From NCBI RefSeq assembly GCF_029227855.1, contig NZ_CP074356.1: a stretch of 64,000 bases of DNA; one strand, given 5' to 3'. The notes beneath the pieces are model-generated. The model made no database searches. It was not told the DNA's origin and saw nothing but the letters and a program-made list of their open reading frames with translations. The DNA is from Escherichia coli (lineage in GTDB: Bacteria > Pseudomonadota > Gammaproteobacteria > Enterobacterales > Enterobacteriaceae). This document shows, in pieces, positions 8,171 to 9,060 of the stretch. The translations under genes were made by a program, and so were the position numbers. Each line of letters opens with the position of its first letter. Position 1 is the stretch's first letter.

Positions 8171-8727
8171 ATTGCACAGGCCGTAAGAACCAAACCACGA
8201 CTGAATGAAACTGGACTGGCGCCAGCAAGCCTGTTCAGACTGGGGCTGAACTTTTCCGGACTCTGAAAGATTACCAATACTCATCGTCCATCCGCTTGCT
8301 TTAGGCTGACAGGTTCATAATCAACGCAAACCAGAGCTGTACAGGCTTGGGCGCGGCTTTCAAACCAGTCGTGATCACGGCAATCAATTTTGAACTCTGC
8401 TTAACGGACATTTCTGTATAACCCTTACGGCAACGAAAAACGCGAAGTTAAAATTTTAGAAACCCAAAAACGTGACATGACTAAGTTTAGATTTCAGGGG
8501 GGGAGATCAAAAAATTTCGCTCTGTGCCAGAGCGGACATTCACGGAGCTGGTTCATTACCAATGAGGTTGGGCTTTTGAGGATAAATCAATGATCAGACG
8601 CCAACGTAAATCAAAAGCAACCCTGGAACGGAATTGCTAATCCAGTTTCTGACCATCGATTTTTCTAAAAAGTGTGCGTTTGCTACTACTTAGGTAGGTG
8701 CAGCTTTCTTAATCACCGGCAGCCACG

Positions 8728-9060
8728 TTATACAGGCCAGTTGATGGATCGATTGTTATCAATGATATCTTCATGAGTCGGTGTCTCACCCAGCTTACCG
8801 AAGCTGGCATAAAGTGAAGGCAGACGGGCCCGTCCTTCTCCCTTTTTCGCCAGAGGGAAAGCGCGAAGCATGGTGGCAGCCTCCCAGTCACAACAATAGG
8901 ATGGTGTGCACGGCTGCTGACGCCATGATTCAGCGATAGAGCCGGAAAATACGGGGTCAAAGCCGGTATCATTAACCAGAGTCATCGTGACCTGTACTGC
9001 GGCTGGATGATCTCCTGCTACTGCAACTGCTAGGCGACCGCGGCTCCCTTCAGGTAGTCT
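8728..9060 (-). pseudogene. Orphan 3' gene fragment of unknown function abutting the IS911-like element
   Basis: The 8728-9141 reading frame continues across the IS end; only the part outside the IS could be a remnant of a disrupted gene; no family recognised. Confidence 0.2.

Follow-up and report, generated by a model that had tools for sequence, protein, structure and literature searches.

The closest described counterpart of the locus considered here is the fecE-yjhV region of Escherichia coli K-12 MG1655, a part of the KpLE2 element. There, fecE, the last gene of the ferric-citrate transport operon, is followed by a spacer (556/557 bp), by yjhV and by the end of an insertion sequence (IS). 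The yjhV gene (b4286; 4509804-4510133), marked as a pseudogene by the K-12 curators, lies 556 bp from fecE and three bases from the end of IS911B-1 (4509801). In K-12, two further elements, IS30D and IS600, are inserted into IS911B, and the genes beyond it are yjhE/yjhD. Literature searches on yjhV and on the fecE/IS911/shf context yielded annotation-level mentions only.

Several other systems serve as references for the parts of this region. Full-length relatives of the YjhV product have an F420_oxidored (PF03807)/NAD_binding_2 Rossmann domain at residues 2-93 (according to Pfam), and the nearest solved structures of these relatives are 4huj (an uncharacterized protein) and the STEAP3 reductase domain 2vns. 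The elements IS911 and ISEc52, about 1.25 kb long, with the orfA/orfB layout and terminal repeats starting with TG, are the reference for the IS end, and ISKpn21 of the ISNCY family, whose transposase gene is matched on about 1,300 plasmids, is the reference for a small part of the spacer.

The analyzed window is the whole stretch of 64,000 nucleotides from the E. coli contig NZ_CP074356.1, and all positions below refer to it unless K-12 is named. The part from 7300 to 9854 forms one contiguous 2,555-bp alignment with K-12 MG1655 (98.6% identity overall; ~0.3% divergence if the IS is left out), in which K-12 yjhV maps to 9057-8728 and the end of IS911B-1 to 9060. With near-identical sequence in the same place between fecE and an IS911-type end, the locus is that of K-12 yjhV; the gene order, the spacer length and the truncation point of yjhV are the same, and in the interval from 8171 to 9060 K-12 differs by six G residues for seven in a homopolymer run and by two substitutions. 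Unlike in K-12, the IS in the window is uninterrupted, and the genes beyond it are a polysaccharide deacetylase gene (shf), capU, virK and lpxM. We consider it very probable that the interval has no function and is debris marking the right-hand end of a mobile fec module, annotated already in K-12.

The left boundary of the interval is fecE (7403-8170, plus strand), a 255-aa open reading frame (ORF) annotated under this name both in identical E. coli records and in K-12. In the identical records, fecABCDE are followed by an unannotated gap, an opposite-strand 85-aa CDS labelled either "hypothetical" or "NAD(P)-binding domain-containing", and a frameshifted IS3-family transposase, beyond which the genes shf (polysaccharide deacetylase), capU, virK and lpxM are found. 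The first-pass annotation, made from the letters of the sequence, had reported about 560 bp without a substantial ORF after fecE, and this agrees with our data: the spacer between fecE and yjhV is 557 bp long (8171-8727), and the longest ORF on either strand has 41 aa. The longest stop-free stretch of the spacer is 62 codons, as compared to 78 +/- 19 in shuffled sequences, and hence the ORF content is at the chance level, like that of non-coding sequence. The short frame said to run from 8728 into the IS end was also recovered; it is on the minus strand, as a 137-aa ORF (8728-9141) that crosses the IS end at 9060, its non-IS part being 8728-9057 only. A run of seven G residues is indeed present, although at 8497-8503 (plus strand) and not at 8500-8507, and the several short inverted repeats are four imperfect pairs of 10-14 nt, with the arms 98-645 nt apart. 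One of these pairs joins DNA of two different origins, which points to chance.

The yjhV pseudogene (8728-9057, minus strand), delimited by the K-12 annotation, coordinate mapping and tblastn, comprises the C-terminal 108-109 codons (residues 140/141-248) and the stop codon of a gene encoding a 248-aa NAD(P)-binding oxidoreductase. Residues 141-248 of the Pantoea agglomerans protein WP_109651334 align without gaps to 9054-8731 (tblastn, 80% identity, E = 2e-63). The full-length 248-aa gene of P. agglomerans is plasmid-borne, is annotated as "NAD(P)-binding domain-containing protein" and is adjoined by a divergent gene encoding a helix-turn-helix protein. The chromosomal gene of Raoultella terrigena has 91.0% nucleotide identity over the yjhV coding part, and the alignment with the Raoultella protein (P0039, 93% identity) begins at residue 140, exactly at the IS end. 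Beside the Raoultella homologue there is a divergent gene of an HxlR-type regulator, which is absent in the window. Residues 1-139 were found by tblastn neither in the 64-kb window nor in 10 kb of K-12. As compared to the F420_oxidored-type oxidoreductases, the window thus lacks residues 1-139 with the whole dinucleotide-binding domain (the N-terminal Rossmann domain), so that the gene is not an intact member of this family but a remnant of one, its C-terminal part being collinear with full-length members over 108 residues. The proposal that the frame may be what is left of a gene broken up by the IS holds true of 8728-9057, which is cut exactly at the IS end and corresponds to the K-12 pseudogene.

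Neither the yjhV fragment nor the small ORFs of the spacer have a Pfam or NCBIfam match above the threshold, the weak hint to DRL_cat (E = 0.085) being below it. The search of the protein database with the 108-aa fragment returned mostly E. coli fragments and IS-fusion artefacts, in addition to the Raoultella protein. In the search of contigs with the same fragment, the matches listed include six distant relatives with 42-53% identity (from Asticcacaulis, Pseudomonas, Erwinia and others), and none of these six is near a fec locus. The 109-codon yjhV frame is open in most genomes, and the NCBI pipeline (PGAP) calls the 85-aa CDS (WP_000177057.1) in it; some strains have variants of the fragment that are frameshifted or scrambled internally (P0009, P0014, P0017, P0022).

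Several side observations concern homologues and annotated products of this gene. The R. terrigena gene (locus L006, 8001-8748), the full-length relative closest to yjhV, seems to be frameshifted in its assembly, being called as two products of 181 aa and 47 aa; this gene may be decaying too, or the frameshift may be an assembly error. Two E. coli "proteins" (P0001 and P0002), as produced by some gene callers, are chimeric, with the C-terminal end of the IS transposase fused to the YjhV remnant across the IS end. One more product (P0035) joins FecE to the ~40 C-terminal residues of YjhV, and this fusion implies that the respective contig has a deletion. All three are annotation or rearrangement artefacts and could mislead homology searches.

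The element whose right end truncates yjhV (9060-10305, minus strand; 1,246 bp) is a defective IS3-family element similar to IS911/ISEc52. It has the orfA/orfB layout, the length and the TG-starting terminal repeats described above for IS911/ISEc52, and its assignment to the IS3 family is based on the HTH domain of orfA (HTH_Tnp_1, PF01527, in the ORF 9962-10306) and the DDE integrase core of orfB (rve, PF00665, in the ORF 9307-9906). The orfB frame is split into two ORFs (9307-9906 and 9068-9238), and in identical records the gene is annotated as "IS3 family transposase, frameshifted; internal stop", the K-12 name of the element being IS911B. No target-site duplication was found on direct reading of the IS termini, the 3-bp flanks of the IS being different, GTC (9057-9059) versus AGG (10306-10308); with orfAB not intact and the 3-4 bp duplication absent, this is not a simple insertion of an active IS3-family element. 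Moreover, since residues 1-139 are absent from the window, the IS did not simply split the gene into two halves that still flank it, and the lack of a target-site duplication fits a later IS-mediated rearrangement. When a probe spanning the junction was compared with free, independent copies of the IS at other E. coli sites, the match began only at 9060, which confirms the IS boundary. Canonical copies annotated as IS911 are only ~92% identical to the IS end region of the window.

The similarity of the element to its K-12 counterpart is uneven: identity to IS911B-1 is 96.4% over the right 795 bp, in which the differences cluster from 9580 on, and over the left 333 bp identity to the left part of IS911B is only 90%. 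The element at 9060-10305 looks recombinant, and, as the genes beyond the IS also differ between K-12 (yjhE/yjhD) and the window (shf-capU-virK-lpxM), homologous recombination between IS copies may have joined the fec block to different neighbours. Directly past the IS, on the chromosome, there is a cluster of low G+C content (10471-12383 and beyond; 7280-10890 in the corresponding locus L001), consisting of the polysaccharide deacetylase gene (shf, 39% G+C), capU, virK and a second lpxM (msbB2-like). The capU gene is intact in the window (362 aa) and has an internal stop in the otherwise identical strain SK1144. The genes shf, capU, virK and the msbB2-like lpxM are better known from virulence plasmids of Shigella and enteroaggregative E. 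coli.

The fecE-yjhV spacer is a mosaic in which four pieces can be told apart, separated by three breakpoints or more. Next to fecE lies its 3' flank (8171-8339, plus strand), which moves together with the fec genes and is delimited by blastn comparison with the fec plasmids of Salmonella and Klebsiella (loci L007 and L008), to which positions 7950-8339 align with 79.7% and 77.9% identity, both alignments ending at 8339. The identity of the flank to the Salmonella and Klebsiella IncF plasmids (78-80%) is at the same level as that of fecE itself. The Salmonella and Klebsiella flanks diverge from the window at 8339, and from each other ~20 bp later.

The flank is followed by a scrap of an ISKpn21-like transposase gene (8320-8394, minus strand), recognized both by DNA similarity and by tblastn. 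At the DNA level, 8312-8390 is 80% identical over 79 bp to the transposase gene of ISKpn21, and this similarity, which may reach ~8295, starts within the fecE flank, overlapping its last ~28 bp in blastn (possibly ~45 bp). In the minus-strand translation of 8320-8394, 17 of 25 residues are identical to residues 147-171 of the 467-residue transposase (tblastn, E = 3e-7 within the region). There are stop codons on both sides of these 25 codons, and no further similarity to the ISKpn21-like transposase was found anywhere in the window or in K-12. Hence, as compared to ISKpn21, with its complete 467-aa transposase gene between the ends, the window has an internal scrap of 25 codons alone, without further coding sequence and apparently without ends.

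The remaining part of the spacer consists of two pieces. AT-rich filler (8395-8543; no strand assigned, 41.6% G+C), lying between two breakpoints, holds both the G run and a terminator-like hairpin. In the plasmid collection, nothing similar to it was found beyond the fec-yjhV block; among E. coli genomes, its matches are confined to carriers of the block, with a median of one copy per genome, and its identity to the Raoultella locus is 34%, which is the random level. The truncated oxidoreductase gene has kept its native 3' flank, the piece adjacent to yjhV (8544-8727, minus strand): in blastn, 8544-9059 aligns to R. terrigena (L006) with 85.6% identity over 520 bp, so that the homology runs 184 bp past the yjhV stop codon and ends abruptly at ~8544. 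The flank is 75.8% identical to Raoultella versus 91.0% for the coding part, a difference that is usual between coding and intergenic sequences. A conserved small ORF in the shared flank was considered and rejected, as the 51-codon ORF called in Raoultella is broken by an indel in E. coli.

The filler differs in one more genome, that of E. coli strain E5 (NZ_CP104521.1), where the 8395-8543 segment matches only to query position 85 (window ~8475), and a second place of the same record is matched as well, so that the spacer of this strain may have undergone one more insertion or rearrangement. In the Salmonella and Klebsiella fec loci, fecE is followed by 1.1-1.3 kb without listed genes (4222-5350 in L007 and 4222-5549 in L008), and only the first ~190 bp after fecE are common to these plasmids, ~170 bp of them being shared with E. 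coli. The right-hand boundary of the fec cassette seems to be common to these lineages, ~170-190 bp after fecE, at the ISKpn21-like site. This location suggests that an ISNCY-type element may once have bounded the cassette, and may later have been eroded differently in each lineage.

Some features of the spacer could be expected of a small regulatory RNA or a cis-regulatory element, for example an sRNA derived from the 3'-UTR of fecE or an antisense RNA, although we consider it very unlikely that the spacer encodes one. The spacer is longer than is usual between genes of E. coli, and the scan for terminator-like patterns yielded five sites versus 1.2 +/- 1.0 in shuffled sequences. The only well-formed structure in the interval is the hairpin at 8518-8534 of the minus strand, supported by the pattern scan and by the fold energy (-10.6 kcal/mol). 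Read from 8534 to 8518, it has a 7-bp stem with five G-C pairs, a 3-nt loop and a T6 tail, the stem being followed by AAATTTTTTG; with a G+C-rich hairpin directly before a T run, it has the sequence of an intrinsic terminator, and may be a candidate stop for leftward transcription from the IS and yjhV. Moreover, the predicted fold of 8171-8450 (plus strand) has a z-score of -2.2, and genomic SELEX has assigned a constitutive sigma-70 promoter to yjhV (PMC3946193). The latter, however, is outside the fecE-yjhV spacer: it is in the insM-yjhV spacer, upstream of yjhV, where the gene faces the IS. As for the fold, it rests on the pairing of 8226-8238 with 8337-8349, where the former arm belongs to the fecE flank and the latter to the IS scrap, at or beyond the 8339 breakpoint of the plasmid fec loci, and pairing of arms of different origins makes this fold a chance product of the mosaic. 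The two other folds are at the chance level (z = -1.7 for 8480-8730, minus strand, and +0.45 for 8400-8730, plus strand). The consensus fold of three fecE flanks, from the window and two plasmid lineages, has an unfavourable covariation term (+0.9), the E. coli copies being too similar for covariation testing beyond these three; hence neither a fold energy well below that of shuffled sequences nor compensatory changes, which would characterize a structured RNA, are observed. The Rfam 15 scan of 7900-10500 gave no credible match even at E <= 1, since the single match was to a plant microRNA family, with 21.7 bits versus the gathering score of 107, and thus the region matches no bacterial small RNA or cis-regulatory RNA family of Rfam 15. 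Conservation does not single out the spacer among its neighbours either: relative to K-12, fecE (0.34%), the spacer (0.36%) and yjhV (0.30%) have diverged uniformly, so that no extra constraint on the spacer is seen, and relative to Raoultella the shared flank has diverged more than the coding sequence next to it. Finally, segments of four different origins are unlikely to make one evolved element. The initial suggestion of a small RNA or regulatory element in the spacer is thus left without support from Rfam, fold energy, conservation or covariation.

Two readings ascribe a function to a single component of the interval. A phase-variable role of the G7 tract, in which slipped-strand mispairing would switch a promoter or ORF nearby, has a nearly negligible probability. 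The tract length does vary between strains, being G7 in the window and G6 in K-12 and many other strains; this is the single-base gap at 8497 relative to K-12, and across E. coli the matches to the segment with the G run are either 160 nt or 159 nt long. Besides, the tract is inside a 38-codon ORF (8477-8593, plus strand), but this ORF has no family match, and its frame is shifted by the G6 allele. No promoter-like site flanks the tract on either strand, the G6/G7 difference is fixed in whole lineages, as would be produced by neutral slippage in non-coding DNA, and the run length is not statistically unusual, since a run of at least seven identical bases of any kind occurs in 15% of composition-matched shuffles. 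It is also highly improbable that the yjhV remnant is a functional small protein, that is, a domesticated C-terminal domain of 85 aa (starting from the ATG at 8985) or of 137 aa (from the IS-borne start at 9141). The open frame and the PGAP call would be compatible with such a protein, the IS transposase genes are transcribed towards yjhV, which makes read-through transcription plausible, and one cross-linking mass-spectrometry preprint reports a YjhV cross-link, listing YjhV as a partner of AceF (bioRxiv 10.1101/2022.09.20.508727); some translation of the frame is possible. Still, an open frame is to be expected in so young a block, with its identity of at least 99% across E. coli, and no family is recognized above the threshold in the fragment alone. 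The open frame, the cross-link and the promoter weigh less than the lost cofactor-binding domain, the annotation of yjhV as a pseudogene in K-12 and the frameshifted or scrambled copies in other strains. It is slightly less improbable, yet quite unlikely, that the debris has a minor secondary role, so that the hairpin insulates fecE from IS-driven antisense read-through, or the YjhV remnant (85-137 aa) is translated and binds cellular proteins, of which the single cross-link to AceF may be a hint.

The reading of the interval as debris agrees with its distribution. At an identity of at least 99%, 8171-9060 is present in 2,736 of 5,426 complete E. coli genomes, almost always as a single chromosomal copy per genome. 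Alignment of the region downstream of fecE in other strains had been named in advance as evidence against a special role of the spacer, and the sequence half of this expectation was borne out, the region being found there at this identity in half of the genomes. At least 80% of the region is present in 2,676 genomes, and the yjhV/IS junction, in its exact form, in 2,620; the junction is thus common to ~98% of the region holders, which means that the truncation is older than the spread of the block in E. coli. The E. coli-type fecE end, together with the spacer to 8560, is also found on small plasmids of Klebsiella with 99.6-99.8% identity, the carriers being K. oxytoca (NZ_CP069921.1, a 9.5-kb plasmid) and K. 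quasipneumoniae (NZ_CP102895.1, a plasmid). These plasmid copies are evidence of recent transfer of the block between genera.

The following scenario, in which the order of insertion and deletion events is deduced by us from the present arrangement, would account for the interval as debris. The ancestral gene, on the minus strand, would have encoded a 248-aa NAD(P)-binding oxidoreductase, whose relatives have an adjoining divergent gene for an HxlR-type regulator. An IS3-family element would have cut this gene at codon 140, and its 5' half would have been lost afterwards, leaving the yjhV pseudogene (8728-9057) with ~184 bp of its own 3' flank. Between this remnant and fecE there are the fecE 3' flank, the ISKpn21-like scrap of 25 codons and ~150 bp of filler, so that the spacer is a record of successive insertions and deletions rather than a designed element. 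The whole block then spread, nearly unchanged, together with fec through E. coli and onto a few plasmids.

What is newly described here, the four-piece patchwork of the spacer and the truncation ancestral to the E. coli fec module, is of minor, descriptive interest. Two points are of modest use. Genome-association studies of mastitis have reported yjhV as a "virulence-associated" match alongside fec (PMC7750360, PMC11390585), and hitch-hiking of yjhV with fec explains these matches; nothing in our analysis suggests that yjhV is an effector. The yjhV remnant with the identical IS junction is a convenient marker, which indicates that a single ancestral rearrangement gave rise to the E. coli fec module, and that the module has been moving as one block ever since, also onto plasmids of Klebsiella.
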